From Candidatus Lachnocurva vaginae (GTDB taxonomy: Bacteria > Bacillota > Clostridia > Lachnospirales > Lachnospiraceae), in assembly GCA_011082265.1 (NCBI GenBank), contig CP049781.1, positions 476,333-540,332 of the forward strand: DNA of 64,000 nucleotides, given 5' to 3'. This document shows positions 37,504 through 56,771 of this stretch, in pieces. The notes under the pieces were generated by a model, which searched no databases, was not told where the DNA came from, and saw nothing but the letters and a program-made list of their open reading frames with translations. The stretch's first letter is position 1. Every line of letters starts with the position of its first letter. A program made the translations under genes and the position numbers.

Positions 37504-37738
37504 AAAAATCCTCCCTTTAAAATTGATAAAAGAAATTGCTTGAAAGGTAATTATACATGAACATAAAATAAAAATCTTTATTTTATAACTTTTATTATAT
37601 ATATTTTATTTTTATATCATAAATATTTTATTTAAGTAACATTCAAGTTTTATTTATTTAAAAAGGTTATTGCATATAAAATAAATAATGAAAGTATGAT
37701 ATATTAGTTTTAAAGAATATTAAAATTATGAATATCTT

Positions 37739-37915
37739 ATGGCAATATATGCATCAAATGCGGGTAAATCGGGAGGAGAATTCTTTACACCCGCAGATAT
37801 CTCAAAGCTTGGAACTGTAGGGAAATCGGAGGTTAATAAGGTGTATATAAATAAGGTGTATATAAAAAAGTTTAAAAACAGGAAAGGATGTTTAAAATAT
37901 TATGAAAAACCTTGA
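37739..37915 (+). pseudogene. 58-codon relic of a Type I R-M hsdM gene (AdoMet-binding [11 protein letters not shown] region) ending at a duplicated aataaggtgtatata core
   Basis: It translates to [36 protein letters not shown]. This is about 85% identical at the nucleotide level to 63541-63657 in the hsdM N-terminal ORF. It breaks at the same VNKVY codon. Confidence 0.75.
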
Positions 37916-38090
37916 AGGATTATGTGGATGTGGGAACGACGACCGTAAAGCAATCATTAACATTTGTGTAATGTCAGCGAAATATTTTAACAATAAAGCG
38001 TCAGTACAGGATATTAACGAAGCTTTGAAAGAAAACGGTCAATCTCCTCTTACAGAAGAGGAGATGAAAAGTTTAAACTTAACTGATTAA
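37902..38090 (+). CDS. hypothetical small protein (62 aa)
   Basis: ORF only, weak RBS, no recognisable motif. Confidence 0.25.
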
Positions 38091-38120
38091 CCTTTTTAAC
38101 AAAATAAAAGAAGCGGATTA

Positions 38121-38327
38121 TTGGCTTATAAGAGTTACTATATAAGAAATCAAAAGGTTATGCTTGATTTTGAACTTGCTGAAATATATGGATATGAAAC
38201 AAAAACATTTAATCAGCAAGTCAAGAATAACATAGAAAAATTTGATGAAGATTTTAGATTTCAACTTACAAAAGATGAATGGGAATTTTTGAGGTCAAAA
38301 ATTTTGACCCCATCAAGATTTTATTAG
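38121..38327 (+). pseudogene. N-terminal fragment of an ORF6N-domain protein (truncated)
   Basis: RNQKVMLDFELAEIYGYETKTFNQQVKNNIEKFDEDFRFQLTKDEW matches the ORF6N N-terminal consensus. Only 68 codons, whereas full-length proteins are about 250 aa. Confidence 0.55.
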
Positions 38328-38793
38328 ATCAAAAGAATTAGTGCAAATAGCAGTACATACAAATGAAAATACAAAGGATATAGCTGAAATAAAGTCGCAA
38401 ATGGCTACAAAAGAAGATAATGTTATTACTAGGTATAATTGTGATAGGTATTATTGTATACCAATATCCAATGCAAAAAGCATTAGCACAAAGAAATTTC
38501 ACAAGTTATATAAATAAACAAGGTGTAGTTTCTGATGAAATTGAGAGTAAAAAGATAATTAAAGATTGGAAACAAGGAGGATATTTGATAATTTAACTTT
38601 TCGTAATGATGAAAACAACAAATACTATTATCATTATCAAACATGGACACATAAAAAAGGAGAAAAGTTGAGATTCAATAGAATTACATTAAGTATTATT
38701 GATGAAAAAAAATCTATTGTGCTAGATGATCCTTATGATGGGAAATGTAAATATCCCCCTATTCAGGAGTAAAAATTAATATAATTATTAAGT

Positions 38794-38826
38794 GACTAAG
38801 GACATTAAGTCTTTAGTCGCTTTTTG
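38794..38826 (+). terminator. rho-independent terminator
   Basis: gactaaggac-attaa-gtctttagtc followed by gcTTTTT. Confidence 0.6.
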
Positions 38827-39210
38827 TTAGTAGATTGTTTATGGTGTGTAAAACAGAATTACAAAAGATCAAATCAGCGATTGAAAGCAAGCAAGTGGAA
38901 ATGAAAGAATTAGAAAAAGTAATGGAAAAGATAGAGAAAGAAGCGGACAAAATAGAAAAGGCACAAAATAAAATGAAGTTGCTTTTGCAATCTGGTTTCA
39001 AAAATATTTAAAACAATAACTGTTGACAATTTTTATTTTTGTACTTTTTTTTTATAAAAATTTTTTGATATAATTATGACAAGTTCCTAAACACTAATTT
39101 TTATTATTATTTATTTAATTTCTACCAAAAAAAATATAAAGGAGTTTATTGTTTTTTTATTTACAATATTAATGACAACTTTCAAAGTGGCGTTTAGGGA
39201 ATTTACTAAT

Positions 39211-39239
39211 TTGACATTTCTAAAAGTATCTGTTATGTT
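39211..39239 (+). promoter_or_regulatory. promoter TTGACA-17-TATGTT driving the antitoxin-RNA repeats
   Basis: -35 at 39211-39216, -10 at 39234-39239, 12 nt before the first repeat. Confidence 0.5.
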
Positions 39240-39250
39240 ATTCGATAAAT

Positions 39251-39329
39251 AAAGAGGGTGTCCCACTACCGTTAAAGGTGGAGCATTAAAGAAGGTGTCT
39301 CACTACCTATATCCAAAAGGTGAAGTATT
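39251..39329 (+). ncRNA. ToxI/antiQ-like type III antitoxin RNA: two imperfect tandem repeats (37 and 42 nt)
   Basis: aaagagggtgtcccactaccgttaaaggtggagcatt and aaagaaggtgtctcactacctatatccaaaaggtgaagtatt, then an aaag-initiated terminator. The arrangement of repeats, terminator and toxN matches type III TA loci. Confidence 0.6.
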
Positions 39330-39336
39330 AAAGCGA

Positions 39337-39366
39337 ACAGAGAGGATAAAACCTCTCTGTTTTTTT
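39337..39366 (+). terminator. rho-independent terminator between the antitoxin repeats and toxN (type III TA attenuator)
   Basis: acagagagg-ataaaa-cctctctgt followed by TTTTTTT. Confidence 0.85.
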
Positions 39367-39377
39367 AGGAGAAGACA

Positions 39378-39935
39378 ATGGCAGAAGCGATTAAATATGG
39401 ATTTTATGCTGTAAATCTTGATTATTTTGAATATCTAAATCAAATAGATTCAGAAGTTTATTACAACCCATCGTATAGAAACAGTATTAAACCATTTGTT
39501 TGAATTATTGTTGGGATAGAAAACTATAATTATTTTATTCCAATATCTTCTGCAAAGGAAAAACACAAAAGATGGAAGAATGTTTCTGATGAGCATTTTT
39601 TGATTTATGAAGTATTTGATAATAACATTACTATAAATGGAGATATATACAAATATTACTCTGATGAAGAAAAAATGCACATATTATCTATATTGGATAT
39701 TAAGAAAATGATACCTGTACCGAATGGTTGTTATGAAAGAATTGAGTTTGATGAGCTTGATGACATCAGATACAAAGACTTATTTGAAAAAGAATATGCT
39801 TTTTGCCTTAAAGTAAAAACAAAGGTTTTGAAAAAGGTAGAAAAATTATATCAGAAGCAAAAGGAAACAGGAACTATCAGAAGAGCAAATTGTAATTTTT
39901 CAGAGTTAGAAAAAGCAATGTTGGATTGGAAGTAA
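39378..39935 (+). pseudogene. ToxN/AbiQ-family endoribonuclease toxin gene with an in-frame TGA at 39501-39503 (Gly-to-stop position in the conserved KPF-G-IV motif)
   Basis: MAEAIKYGFYAVNLDYFEYLNQIDSEVYYNPSYRNSIKPFV*IIVGIENYNYFIPISSAKEKH...MIPVPN...RANCNFSELEKA matches the ToxN/AbiQ pattern (FY.I...YL..D..V...KPFIGIV...YL.PLSS.K.KH...MIP...C.F..LE). The reading frame is continuous apart from the single TGA. Confidence 0.65.
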
Positions 39936-40136
39936 AATATAAATTACTTATGAATAATCAAGGAAGTGGAATAATATTCTGCTTCTTTTTTTTGCGAGGG
40001 AAAGTATTTATAAGTATGATACAAGACAACGGAGAGGTGTTTTTAGAACATTGCAGCTAAAAGAGGCATAGAGTATGCCTAAGATAAAAGCAAGTCTTAA
40101 AACACATTCCATCACTTAATACAACAAAACAGTTAG

Positions 40137-40173
40137 AGCGATTAGAAAAGTAAAACATCTAATCGCTTTTTTT
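40137..40173 (+). terminator. rho-independent terminator
   Basis: agcgattag-(13 nt)-ctaatcgct followed by TTTTTTT. Confidence 0.75.
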
Positions 40174-40196: not shown

Positions 40197-40439
40197 ATGA
40201 CAGATGAAGAAAACAAACCTGAAAACACATTTAGCAAAAAAACTGGAAAAACAAACTATAAAGTTACAGTGCATTTCAGCGAAACCAGTGATGAAACAAT
40301 CACAGATAAAATAAATAGACTTATTCAGAAAGAATGTGAAGATATGAGTTACAAAAAAGAGATGCTGATTTTTTTGATAATAATTATTGACAAAAAAAGG
40401 TTAGATAATATGATTATTTTAGATAATCTTATTATCTAA
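40197..40439 (+). CDS. hypothetical small protein (80 aa); its C-terminal ~15 codons are encoded by the operator palindrome
   Basis: Strong RBS AAAGGAGGAGG; no recognisable family. Confidence 0.35.
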   Translation: MTDEENKPENTFSKKTGKTNYKVTVHFSETSDETITDKINRLIQKECEDMSYKKEMLIFLIIIIDKKRLDNMIILDNLII

Positions 40440-40457
40440 AATAATCATATTATCTAA
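40401..40457. promoter_or_regulatory. 57-bp palindrome (perfect 20-bp arms ttagataatatgattatttt / aaaataatcatattatctaa around a palindromic agataat-ctt-attatct core); likely TetR operator
   Basis: Exact reverse-complement arms. It lies 18 bp upstream of the TetR start and overlaps a TTGACA at 40387-40392. Confidence 0.6.
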
Positions 40458-40475
40458 CCATGGGAGGTAGATATA

Positions 40476-41114
40476 ATGTCGTATAGTTCAGATTTAACAA
40501 AAAATAGAATTTTAGAATGCGCGAAAGAGGAGTTTTTAGATAAGGGCTTTGAGGAAGCACAGGTGGCTGGAATTGCTAAATTGGCAAATGTAACTACAGG
40601 AGCAATTTATCGTCATTTTAAAAATAAGGAAGCCTTATTTTTCGCTCTAATCGAAGAAGTATATAATTACACTCTAAATGTTGTTGCTGATGCTGAAAAG
40701 AAAAGTGAGGATGAAAATCAAAGAAAACATTTTGAATTAATAGATGAAAAAGTTGCAATAGAAGAGTTCTTTTCAGAAACAATGTTGTTTGTTGATTATA
40801 TGTATGCTCATTTTGACGATTTCAAACTGATTCTTGAATGTAGCAAAGGTTCGAGAGTAGAAAATTTCATTGAGGAAATCGTTGAAAGATATACGATTAA
40901 AAATATGAAATTAATACATAATGACTTTCCGCTACAAATAAATAACGGAATAAAAGAGTTTGAGGTTCATGTTATTACAAAAGGCTATATAACATCTTTG
41001 TGCGAGTGTATTCTTCATAGAATTCCATACCAAGATGTTAGCGAATATATCAGAAACATAGTTGCTTTTCAGTATTATGGTTGGCAAGGATTGATGAATA
41101 AAAAAGAAAAATAA
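40476..41114 (+). CDS. TetR/AcrR family transcriptional regulator
   Basis: N-terminal HTH with TTGAIYRHFKNKEALF. Confidence 0.85.
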   Translation: MSYSSDLTKNRILECAKEEFLDKGFEEAQVAGIAKLANVTTGAIYRHFKNKEALFFALIEEVYNYTLNVVADAEKKSEDENQRKHFELIDEKVAIEEFFSETMLFVDYMYAHFDDFKLILECSKGSRVENFIEEIVERYTIKNMKLIHNDFPLQINNGIKEFEVHVITKGYITSLCECILHRIPYQDVSEYIRNIVAFQYYGWQGLMNKKEK

Positions 41115-54738: not shown

Positions 54739-55395
54739 ATGGATATATTAGAAATAAAAAATGTAGCATATAGTTATTCAAACTCTAAAGAAAAAGTACT
54801 GTCAGGAATTAATCAAAAATTTGAATTAGGCAAGTTTTATGCAATAGTAGGAAAATCCGGAACAGGAAAATCCACACTACTTTCATTGCTTGCAGGTCTT
54901 GATAAGCCTAAATCGGGAAAAATATTATTTAAGAATGAAGATATAGAAAAAAAGGGATATAGTAATCACAGAAAAAATAACATATCTTTGGTATTTCAAA
55001 ACTATAATTTAATTGACTACTTGTCACCACTTGAAAATATTAGATTGGTTAATAAGTCAGCTGATGAAAGTATACTATGTGAACTGGGATTAGATCAGAA
55101 ACAAATAAAAAGAAATGTTATGAAATTATCAGGTGGACAGCAACAAAGGGTAGCTATTGCCAGAGCATTGGTATCGGAGGCTCCGATAATACTGGCTGAT
55201 GAACCTACAGGGAACTTAGACAGTGTTACTGCCGGAGAAATAATTGATATATTAAAGAAATTAGCTAAAAATAGAAATAAATGCGTAATAGTTGTAACAC
55301 ACAGTAAGAAAGTGGCGGATTCTGCGGATATAATTTTAGAATTAAGCGGTAAAAAATTGAAAAAAGTGAATAAAATGAATTTGGAGGTTGAATAA
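54739..55395 (+). CDS. ABC transporter ATP-binding protein
   Basis: GKSGTGKST Walker [16 protein letters not shown] signature. Confidence 0.85.
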   Translation: MDILEIKNVAYSYSNSKEKVLSGINQKFELGKFYAIVGKSGTGKSTLLSLLAGLDKPKSGKILFKNEDIEKKGYSNHRKNNISLVFQNYNLIDYLSPLENIRLVNKSADESILCELGLDQKQIKRNVMKLSGGQQQRVAIARALVSEAPIILADEPTGNLDSVTAGEIIDILKKLAKNRNKCVIVVTHSKKVADSADIILELSGKKLKKVNKMNLEVE

Positions 55396-56771
55396 TGATA
55401 AAAAATGCATTTGCTTATGTAACCAGAAAAAGCTTGAAATCATTGATTCTTATATTGGTTATTTTATCAATGTCAACTTTGAGTCTTATTAGCTTATCTA
55501 TTAAAGATGCTACAGACAGAGCCTCAAAAGAAACATTTGCCAACATAACAAACAGTTTTTCTATGGAAATCAATAGACAAGTAAATCCGGGAACACCTAG
55601 GGGCGGAGGAAATGTAAAGGGTGAAGACATTAAAAAGATATCTCAAACAGACAGTATAGACTCCTATGTAAAAAGAATAAACAGCGTTGCGGATCTAGTT
55701 GATTATGATATTATTGAAAATAAAGAGACACTTGCAAATCAATCACCGGAGAGAGCTAAGAATTTTAAAAGAACGGTTATGTTGACAGGTGTTAACGACT
55801 CATCAAAAGAAACAAAATTTGTATCAGAAGCATATAAATTAGTTGAAGGAAATCATTTAAAAAACGATGATAAAAATAAAGTTTTGTTGCATAAGGATTT
55901 AGCGGCAAAAAACAATCTGAAAGTCGGAGATAAAATTAAATTGAAATCCAATTTATTTGATGCCGATAATGAAAAGGGAGCAGATGAAACCGTAGAAGTA
56001 GAAATTAAAGGTTTGTTTGATGGACATAACAGCGGCGGAGTGAGTGCCGCACAAGAGCTTTATGAAAACACATTGATTACCGATGTTCACACGGCTGCTA
56101 AAGTTTATGGAAATACAGAAAATACAGCTGTATATCAAGATGCAACATTCTTCGTAAAAGGTGATAAAAGTCTTGATAGCGTAATAAGGGATCTTGGAAA
56201 ATTAGATATAAATTGGAGAGAATATAATTTGATTAAGAGCACATCAAATTATCCGGCGTTACAACAATCCATATCGGGTATCTATTCAATATCAAACAAA
56301 TTGTTTGCCGGCTCATTAATATTTGCAGGCGTTGTAGTTTCATTGTTACTGTTCTTATGGATGAATGCCAGAAAGAAAGAAATAGCGGTATTGCTGTCAT
56401 TGGGCAAATCAAAATTAGAAATTTTCGGACAGTTTATAATTGAGATGGTATTCATATCTGTTCCCGCACTTTTCGGTTCTTATTTCTTAGCTCAATATAC
56501 ATCTGATAAGCTTGGGAACAATATATTGAATAAGGTTACCGGTGATATAGCTAAACAAATAGCAAGACAATCTGCGTCTAGTCAATTAGGCGGTGGGGCA
56601 GAAGCTGAAGGCTTTAACAAGACTTTATCAAGTTTAGATATAAATGTGTTACCTAAATTTATAATTTATGTAGTTATATTTGTGAGTTTGGTACTTCTTG
56701 TATCATTGATTATTTCTTCATTTAATATATTAAGAAAGAATCCCAAAGAACTATTAATTGACAATAATTAA
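55395..56771 (+). CDS. ABC transporter permease, MacB/FtsX-like (paralog of 53452-54729)
   Basis: Same N-terminal pattern MIKNAFAYVTRKSLKSL and C-terminal FtsX TM bundle. Confidence 0.6.
   Translation: MIKNAFAYVTRKSLKSLILILVILSMSTLSLISLSIKDATDRASKETFANITNSFSMEINRQVNPGTPRGGGNVKGEDIKKISQTDSIDSYVKRINSVADLVDYDIIENKETLANQSPERAKNFKRTVMLTGVNDSSKETKFVSEAYKLVEGNHLKNDDKNKVLLHKDLAAKNNLKVGDKIKLKSNLFDADNEKGADETVEVEIKGLFDGHNSGGVSAAQELYENTLITDVHTAAKVYGNTENTAVYQDATFFVKGDKSLDSVIRDLGKLDINWREYNLIKSTSNYPALQQSISGIYSISNKLFAGSLIFAGVVVSLLLFLWMNARKKEIAVLLSLGKSKLEIFGQFIIEMVFISVPALFGSYFLAQYTSDKLGNNILNKVTGDIAKQIARQSASSQLGGGAEAEGFNKTLSSLDINVLPKFIIYVVIFVSLVLLVSLIISSFNILRKNPKELLIDNN

Follow-up and report, generated by a model that had tools for sequence, protein, structure and literature searches.

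A nonsense-interrupted toxIN/AbiQ-type cassette on the chromosome of "Candidatus Lachnocurva vaginae", very probably an immobilised type III toxin–antitoxin remnant

Does a toxIN-like locus whose toxin frame is broken by one stop codon still work as a toxin–antitoxin (TA) system, is the stop an artefact of the assembly, or is the locus a remnant? The question is raised by positions 39211-39935 of the window (the whole 64-kb stretch of contig CP049781.1 analysed here), which hold a promoter, two antitoxin-RNA repeats, a strong terminator, a ribosome-binding site (RBS) and a 185-codon ToxN frame. The circularised genome of "Candidatus Lachnocurva vaginae" (BVAB1) comprises 1,649,642 bp with 31.8% GC, and the word 'toxin' is never used in the paper that describes it (PMC7136613).

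The predicted operon promoter is of the sigma-70 type (39211-39239, + strand), with TTGACA and TATGTT hexamers 17 nt apart, an extended -10 TG and 10 of 12 consensus matches. Promoter-like sites in this AT-rich region are not above chance (6 found, 11 expected from shuffled sequences). The position of this promoter is kept in about 35 homologous loci, which have the -35 TTGACA and the 17-nt spacing in common and mostly TATACT as the -10; compared with the latter, the TATGTT of the window is a weaker variant, and it is polymorphic within the species. Downstream on the same strand lie toxI antitoxin RNA unit 1 (39250-39286, 37 nt), unit 2 (39287-39328, 42 nt) and a partial third repeat, TAAAG (39329-39333), which belongs to a third copy of the A-rich AUUAAAG junction, so that the array amounts to about 2.1 copies (37 nt, 42 nt and a 5-nt partial copy). 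A repeat search picked up the units in two blocks, at spacings of 37 and 42, and the 64 kb contain exactly two copies of their 14-nt core, GGTGTCYCRCTACC, where none would be expected by chance. Tandem Repeats Finder reported no array at toxI, because the array is too short and contains a 5-nt indel. Rfam gave no match at gathering thresholds across the whole window, and a permissive scan of 39150-39420 returned chance-level matches only (the best being sraA, E 0.098, driven by the terminator); the toxI units are therefore recognised by no curated ToxI model.

The rho-independent terminator between toxI and toxN (39335-39366, + strand) consists of a stem (39335-45 with 39352-62; a perfect inverted repeat of 10-11 bp, -16.7 kcal/mol, z -5.9) followed by a U-run, and is kept in distant loci with compensatory changes. 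The RBS AGGAG (39367-39371, +) lies 6 nt 5′ of the ATG and is conserved in homologues. The toxN pseudogene itself (39378-39935, +; 185 codons) runs from the ATG at 39378 to the TAA at 39933-39935, with an in-frame TGA at codon 42. All of these elements had been proposed in the first-pass annotation and proved to be in place, some of them a few bases off. The same annotation had held that neighbouring terminators isolate the locus as a module; both outer terminators are real (38790-38822 and approximately 40135-40169), but it is homology with other genomes that sets the limits of the module, at 39162/39190 on one side and at about 39950 on the other, or at 40360 when an adjacent tnpW-like ORF is included. 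A further terminator, absent from the earlier annotation, lies directly 3′ of toxN (39960-39996, +; hairpin 39960-39988, -11.9 kcal/mol, z -3.2).

Protein comparisons were made with the conceptual translation, in which codon 42 is read as Gly. This protein matched the Pfam family PF13958 (ToxN_toxin) with an E value of 1.2e-41 and 143 bits against a cut-off of 25, over profile positions 3-157 of 159 and 174 of its 185 residues, and it was matched by the AbiQ model of PADLOC (E 1.6e-27). Its solved-structure matches were 4ato, 2xd0, 7d8o and 4glk, namely ToxN of B. thuringiensis, P. atrosepticum and E. coli, and AbiQ; all TA-related matches in the PDB were ToxN or AbiQ chains. The active site of ToxN-Pa is made up of Tyr29, Lys33, Thr52, Ser53 and Lys55 (PMC5086642), and in a phmmer alignment these residues fall on Y33, K38, S57, S58 and K60 of the conceptual protein. 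An NCBIfam search with the same protein yielded no matches. The comparisons do not place it in CptN/TenpN, ToxN_toxin being the sole Pfam match, with no CptN chain found in the PDB at E ≤ 1. The type III toxIN/AbiQ assignment made at first sight is thus borne out by the Pfam, PADLOC and PDB matches and by the conserved layout, and judged by its sequence the locus is a member of the toxIN family of type III TA and abortive-infection (Abi) systems, with the canonical order of promoter, repeats, terminator and toxin. An uninterrupted toxin frame, as toxIN requires, is lacking, and the locus is a pseudogenised member of the family, not a functional one.

The first-pass annotation had regarded both the two-repeat array and the unequal lengths of its repeats as unusual. 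Neither view held. An alignment of the upstream regions of about 40 related loci from many genera revealed a 37-nt unit followed by a 42-nt unit as the rule in this subfamily, and the 37+42-nt array is present at every locus with an intact toxN; the exceptions in the subfamily are one locus with three units and one with an internal duplication. Published toxIN arrays range from 1.9 to 5.6 copies of 31-62 nt (Blower et al. 2012, PMC3401426, Table 2), and AbiQ antitoxicity needs at least 1.8 repeats (PMC5086642). The array of the window is normal in size for toxIN, since it lies within the published range of copy number and length and above the AbiQ minimum. The subfamily antitoxin, as a by-product of this analysis, emerges as a conserved pair of non-identical units.

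Both units can be folded into the same predicted H-type pseudoknot, in which stem 1 (GGU:ACC) pairs 39257-59 with 39268-70 in unit 1 and 39294-96 with 39305-07 in unit 2, and stem 2 (C/U-C-A/G-C-U with G-G-U-G-G/A) pairs 39263-67 with 39277-81 and 39300-04 with 39319-23, respectively. Across 38 distinct units and 8 proposed pairs, all 304 of 304 pair cells are standard, as against only 32-75% of cells in slid controls. The outermost pair of the second stem (39263:39281 in unit 1, 39300:39323 in unit 2) changes from C-G in the former unit to U-A in the latter, in perfect linkage (26 versus 12 distinct units), a second variable pair of this stem alternates between A-U and G.U, and the extra 5 nt of unit 2 fall in the loop between the predicted stems. 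The compensatory base-pair difference between the two units supports the pseudoknot model, and the predicted fold would be consistent with the published ToxI fold (PMC5086642), with a covariation that perhaps reflects only one or two independent events. The AUUAAAG junctions are the presumed ToxN processing sites, because RNases of the ToxN family are known for A-rich specificity (PMC5086642).

Of the known systems, the best solved-structure match is ToxIN of the B. thuringiensis plasmid pAW63 (4ATO, E 6.4e-12), a Gram-positive system that has the same layout and a short array (2.9 repeats of 34 nt). The sequence similarity to it is only distant; at the locus studied here the units are of 37 and 42 nt with a compensatory stem difference, the cassette is chromosomal or ICE-borne rather than on a plasmid, and the toxin is a pseudogene. 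ToxI-Bt adopts an H-type pseudoknot flanked by single-stranded tails, and the site cut by ToxN-Bt is A-rich, A/AAAA (PMC5086642). ToxIN of Pectobacterium atrosepticum pECA1039 (2XD0/2XDD) belongs to the same family, with a full-length match (E 6.9e-11) and an aligned active site, but it is a Gram-negative plasmid system with a functional toxin and 5.5 repeats of 36 nt, compared with 2.1 of 37/42 nt in the window. The window units share with ToxI-Pa the motif GGUG...CUACC. AbiQ/antiQ of Lactococcus lactis pSRQ900 (4GLK, E 5.8e-7) likewise comprises a ToxN-family RNase, a more distant protein that has Ser where ToxN has Thr, as at S57 of the window, and its antiQ repeats are of a uniform 35 nt. 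The antiQ array is small, at 2.8 repeats (PMC5086642).

A further ToxN/AbiQ-family locus was found on the L. lactis plasmid p001F (NZ_CP053672.2), whose toxI units, AGGTGACTCRCTACCTATATCCCGAATGTGAAGCTTAAATT, are clearly homologous to unit 2 of the window, while the toxins are only 35% identical; p001F is a mobilisable plasmid with 3.8 uniform 39-nt units and an intact toxin. Blower et al. (2012) had noted loci with full repeats and terminators but partial toxin genes, and their toxIN hosts include Peptoniphilus duerdenii and P. harei, two species in which the present subfamily was detected, and several related genera (PMC3401426). The truncated toxins of that survey were reported as short ORFs of unknown status, whereas here the lesion, its frequency in the population and the relaxed constraint are documented.

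The in-frame TGA (39501-39503, + strand) stands in place of the GGA (Gly42) found in all intact homologues, with the rest of the frame intact, which confirms the earlier observation of a stop at a conserved Gly. The species of the window is absent from the scan of 55 related loci described below, and conspecific contigs were reached by an exact-protein look-up of the neighbouring TetR. This produced six metagenome contigs from independent assemblies, which share the gene order and are 99.2-100% identical across 12.6 kb; codon 42 is TGA in five of them and GGA, within an intact 185-residue ORF, in one (L059). Moreover, 41-residue truncated products carrying the species-specific Leu14 are present on 61 contigs, compared with two for the intact conspecific allele. 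The inactivation had been proposed to be recent. This is doubtful: TGA was found on two N-terminal haplotypes and the TGA allele comprises several haplotypes within the species, so that the allele is not very recent.

Of the long ORFs in the window, 10 of 48 end with TGA, which is thus a normal stop codon in this genome. An alternative code, with TGA read as Gly or Trp, was rejected on the same count, no other gene of the window needing read-through. Selenocysteine recoding was rejected in view of the GGA at codon 42 of all intact homologues. Re-initiation was likewise rejected: beyond the stop, the earliest start in frame is a TTG at 39600, which has no RBS and lies behind all catalytic residues.

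Constraint on toxN downstream of the stop is relaxed, although the contrast rests on few substitutions. TGA alleles differ from one another by four nonsynonymous polymorphisms and no synonymous one, and two of the four, L17F and I80F, hit positions conserved across intact homologues. Between the window and the intact conspecific L059 allele, dN is 0.011 and dS 0.010 (approximately 7 differences, 7/558 nt), giving a ratio near 1, as opposed to a median dN/dS of 0.10 for pairs of intact homologues (n=53). The antitoxin side has changed too. Over the toxI and promoter stretch, 4 of 158 positions differ from the intact conspecific allele, and one of these differences, a C to T change at 39326, in unit 2, is found in all TGA alleles where every other locus has C. 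These comparisons point to a true, inherited and mostly fixed pseudogene that is probably decaying on both sides of the TA pair. Three options had been offered for the stop (inactivation in a decaying island, sequencing error, or read-through), and the first of these is the one backed by the data.

The surroundings of the locus are of a similar kind. In the window, toxIN sits in a 3-kb stretch of gene fragments, with 27% GC compared with 31.6% for the window, that lies between conserved chromosomal genes. Part of it is an AT-rich junk island (37504-39161, + strand) with a 23-residue N6_Mtase fragment, a truncated ORF6N, a truncated DUF3139 and a short coiled-coil ORF; mobility genes are absent from the 3-kb stretch. 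The tnpW-like ORF (40197-40439, +; Pfam PF14202, E 7.8e-12) lies on the other side, and the homology with loci of Johnsonella and Fusobacterium extends into it, to 40360.

A scan with one genome per species detected 55 related loci with 60-98% amino-acid identity, all from oral, vaginal and gut anaerobes, in which the order of promoter, two units, terminator, RBS and ORF is conserved. The genera include Johnsonella, Gemella, Peptoanaerobacter, Fusobacterium, Oribacterium, Anaeroglobus, Anaerococcus, Peptoniphilus, Parvimonas and Granulicatella. At the DNA level, the stretch that these loci share with the window runs from 39162-39200 to about 39950, and in four loci it reaches 40360 and takes in tnpW. 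Elsewhere, related cassettes adjoin a MobA/MobL relaxase or lie within ICE-like sets that contain topoisomerase III, a CD1107-like protein and a 1262-residue LPD18 (large polyvalent protein-associated) protein. A search of plasmid DNA gave a single match (69.5%), to an Enterococcus conjugative plasmid whose toxin copy is 59% identical and annotated as ToxN/AbiQ. By homology, then, the toxIN of the window is revealed as a remnant derived from a mobile element, apparently an ICE, with only tnpW retained beside it, and the tnpW-like ORF would have been co-inherited with toxIN from that element.

Taken together, what lies on the chromosome here is very probably the immobilised remnant of a type III TA and abortive-infection cassette of the ToxIN family whose toxN was killed by a nonsense mutation. 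In other Firmicutes and Fusobacteria the same cassette travels with conjugative or mobilisable elements. In the intact form, a constitutive promoter would transcribe the two toxI units, the terminator would stop most transcripts, and those that read through would serve as toxN mRNA. ToxN, a sequence-specific endoribonuclease, would cut the toxI precursor at the A-rich unit junctions, and the resulting pseudoknotted toxI monomers would keep it inactive until phage infection or loss of the element halted transcription, whereupon the labile RNA would decay and ToxN be released. In the window, a G to T change turned the Gly42 codon GGA into TGA, and translation would end after 41 residues. Such a peptide would carry only the equivalents of Tyr33 and Lys38 of the active site and be without those of Ser57, Ser58 and Lys60. 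If toxI is transcribed, as we infer from the promoter, its transcript would stay unprocessed, ToxN protein and with it both TA and Abi function would be missing, and the two halves of the locus would drift neutrally. The locus may still work in some strains, as the minority intact allele of L059 suggests.

Loss of toxN is frequent and independent in this lineage. Of about 49 genome loci that could be assessed, about 19 have a disrupted toxN, through at least nine independent lesions that include nonsense mutations, 1-nt indels or frameshifts in A-runs, and deletions, and both toxI units are retained in all but one of the disrupted loci (the exception being L055). Nine species share one and the same frameshifted allele, which corresponds to an NCBI MULTISPECIES 110-residue ToxN/AbiQ protein on 291 contigs. 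This pattern could be taken to mean that, once the toxin is lost, selection keeps promoter, toxI and terminator as a free-standing antitoxin RNA, acting against incoming ICE-borne ToxN (anti-addiction) or modulating Abi. Besides the retention of toxI through so many independent lesions, such selection would be in keeping with the Oribacterium loci that are without the 3′ half of toxN and yet have consensus toxI units, and with the solitary toxI-like units of phages (see below), which show that such an RNA alone can have value, the pseudo-ToxI of PhiTE being a precedent (PMC3475682). However, no TA pair can decay viably unless the toxin goes first, so that the retention of toxI needs no selection. 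In this species the toxI and promoter stretch has diverged at least as fast as the dead toxN (4/158 versus 7/558 nt), its changes having weakened the -10 and hit a unit position that is invariant elsewhere. Furthermore, the most degraded locus, L055, has no unit 1 and a broken stem 1 in its remaining unit. We consider selection for a free-standing antitoxin unlikely, and in the frequent loss of toxN with toxI kept we see ordinary decay, not orphan antitoxins kept by selection, because toxin-first decay is expected for any TA pair. Quite unlikely, too, is the broader conjecture that toxin-null, antitoxin-positive alleles are kept in vaginal, oral and gut anaerobes as an RNA 'vaccine' against incoming ToxN, or to tune abortive infection. 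If true, it would explain the nine or more independent toxN knock-outs with toxI almost always retained, and also the dominance of the TGA allele in this species.

The remnant reading also has to be weighed against a working toxIN in which low-level read-through or recoding of the UGA gives full-length ToxN in an amount small enough to be tolerated. Among stop codons UGA is the leakiest, and trace read-through is thus possible. The other parts are all intact (promoter, toxI, terminator, RBS and the remainder of the frame), and TGA is the majority allele, having persisted long enough to diversify. Nevertheless, the read-through arrangement, which the first-pass annotation had entertained, is disfavoured because constraint downstream of the stop is relaxed: all four polymorphisms there are nonsynonymous, two at conserved positions, and dN/dS is near 1 instead of about 0.1. 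Against it stand also the GGA of the intact homologues and the ordinary use of TGA as a stop, as well as the mutations that the antitoxin unit and the -10 box of the locus itself have acquired. When UGA is read through by a near-cognate tRNA, the residue inserted is usually Trp, and it would here replace the invariant Gly of the KPFVGI strand. We regard a read-through system as very unlikely.

That the TGA is a sequencing or assembly error in a gene that is really intact, as had also been suggested, deserves next to no credence: a PacBio long-read metagenome-assembled genome is the likely source of the sequence, but five independent metagenome assemblies that differ elsewhere in the 12.6 kb share the codon, the 41-residue product is called on 61 contigs, and long-read errors are mostly indels, not G to T substitutions.

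The system at this locus is of a known kind, here in degenerate form, and belongs to a subfamily already catalogued and annotated by NCBI as ToxN/AbiQ. It adds a pseudogenised ToxN/AbiQ copy to the genome of an uncultured vaginal bacterium and matters little alone. Solitary toxI-like units in phages may be of more interest than the locus itself. A pattern search for toxI units in viral contigs detected two full cassettes, as well as four contigs that have a lone unit but lack toxN; the unit lies near a terminase large-subunit gene in two of these four. Among GenBank phages, a lone unit is present in 12 records of the Lactococcus 949 group (Audreyjarvisvirus), where it occupies intergenic DNA within a tRNA cluster. 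This solitary phage unit goes unmentioned in a 2026 review of lactococcal Abi systems, which reports AbiQ to be effective against cultured phages of the 949 group (PMC13064643). The unit of these phages matches the 3.8-copy toxI array of L. lactis p001F, and by analogy with the pseudo-ToxI of PhiTE (PMC3475682) such solitary units could be antitoxin decoys.

Inactivation of toxN has occurred independently in many species (loci L033-L045, L047, L050-L055 and L017). The lesions comprise single-nucleotide indels within A5-A7 runs, one deletion of 2 nt, internal deletions and stop codons. In these inactivated loci the segment comprising the promoter, toxI and the terminator was almost always retained. 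One frameshifted toxN allele, GATAGA-AAAAAATG, is identical across nine species and was found on 291 contigs, and NCBI lists its 110-aa product under a MULTISPECIES annotation as ToxN/AbiQ.

Within the species, the toxN frame of the window (39378-39935), which carries a TGA at codon 42, was compared with the conspecific metagenome contigs L057-L061. Among the TGA alleles, the substitutions L17F and I80F were seen in all four combinations, and the TGA itself is carried by both the AVNL and the TVDL N-terminal haplotypes; this implies that recombination or recurrent mutation has taken place within the species. In addition, all five TGA alleles share a C to T change at position 39326, which lies in the 3′ tail of the second toxI unit (39287-39328); the change is absent from the intact conspecific allele (L059, with GGA at codon 42) and from every other locus. 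This change would represent either neutral decay following the death of toxN, or an initial weakening of the antitoxin followed by selection for loss of the toxin.

The size of the toxI array also varies between loci, as seen in the upstream regions of L012 and L024. In Lachnoanaerobaculum saburreum the array contains one short unit and two long ones, three in all. In a Lachnospiraceae MAG the loop of unit 2 carries a 13-nt internal duplication, showing that this loop tolerates insertions.

Single toxI-like units were observed in 12 phage records of the Lactococcus 949 group (Audreyjarvisvirus), located in intergenic DNA of a tRNA cluster, for example at 1498-1545 in phage LW81 (L068) and at 1503-1550 in phage AM1 (L069). 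The phage unit displays ∼85-90% identity to toxI unit 2 of the window, and it also matches the toxI array (3.8 × 39-nt; L070, 390-545) of the ToxN/AbiQ locus on the L. lactis plasmid p001F. By analogy with the pseudo-ToxI of phage PhiTE (PMC3475682), the 949-group unit is possibly an antitoxin decoy. No mention of it was found in one 2026 review of lactococcal Abi systems (PMC13064643).

Four uncultured viral contigs likewise hold one toxI-like unit apiece without toxN: L063 (221-252), L064 (5667-5698, minus strand), L065 (79-110, minus strand) and L067 (1782-1808). The unit is followed by a terminator-like hairpin in L063, L064 and L065, lies near a terminase large-subunit gene in L065 and L067, and adjoins an anti-repressor gene in L064. 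Since L064 still retains a remnant of ∼40 nt from the 5′ end of toxN, some of these viral units may have arisen by decay and not be decoys.

Upstream of the window locus, an AT-rich stretch (37504-39161, 27% GC) is composed of gene fragments, namely a 23-residue piece of an N6 DNA methylase together with truncated versions of ORF6N and DUF3139. Two conspecific contigs, L057 and L060, encode an intact DUF3139 protein (117 aa), and a third, L061, holds a different insert at this site, so that the island is variable within the species. Downstream, a near-perfect 61-nt palindrome (40399-40459; GGTTAGATAATATGATTATTTTAGATAAT...ATTATCTAAAATAATCATATTATCTAACC) lies directly upstream of a TetR gene at 40476, and may be either the TetR operator or a terminator of the tnpW-like ORF (40197-40439, plus strand).

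Elsewhere in the window, an FtsX-like ABC permease (55395-56771) falls into a cluster that, at 90% identity, has 20,762 members, Streptococcus agalactiae proteins among them, suggesting that another widely exchanged element is present here.
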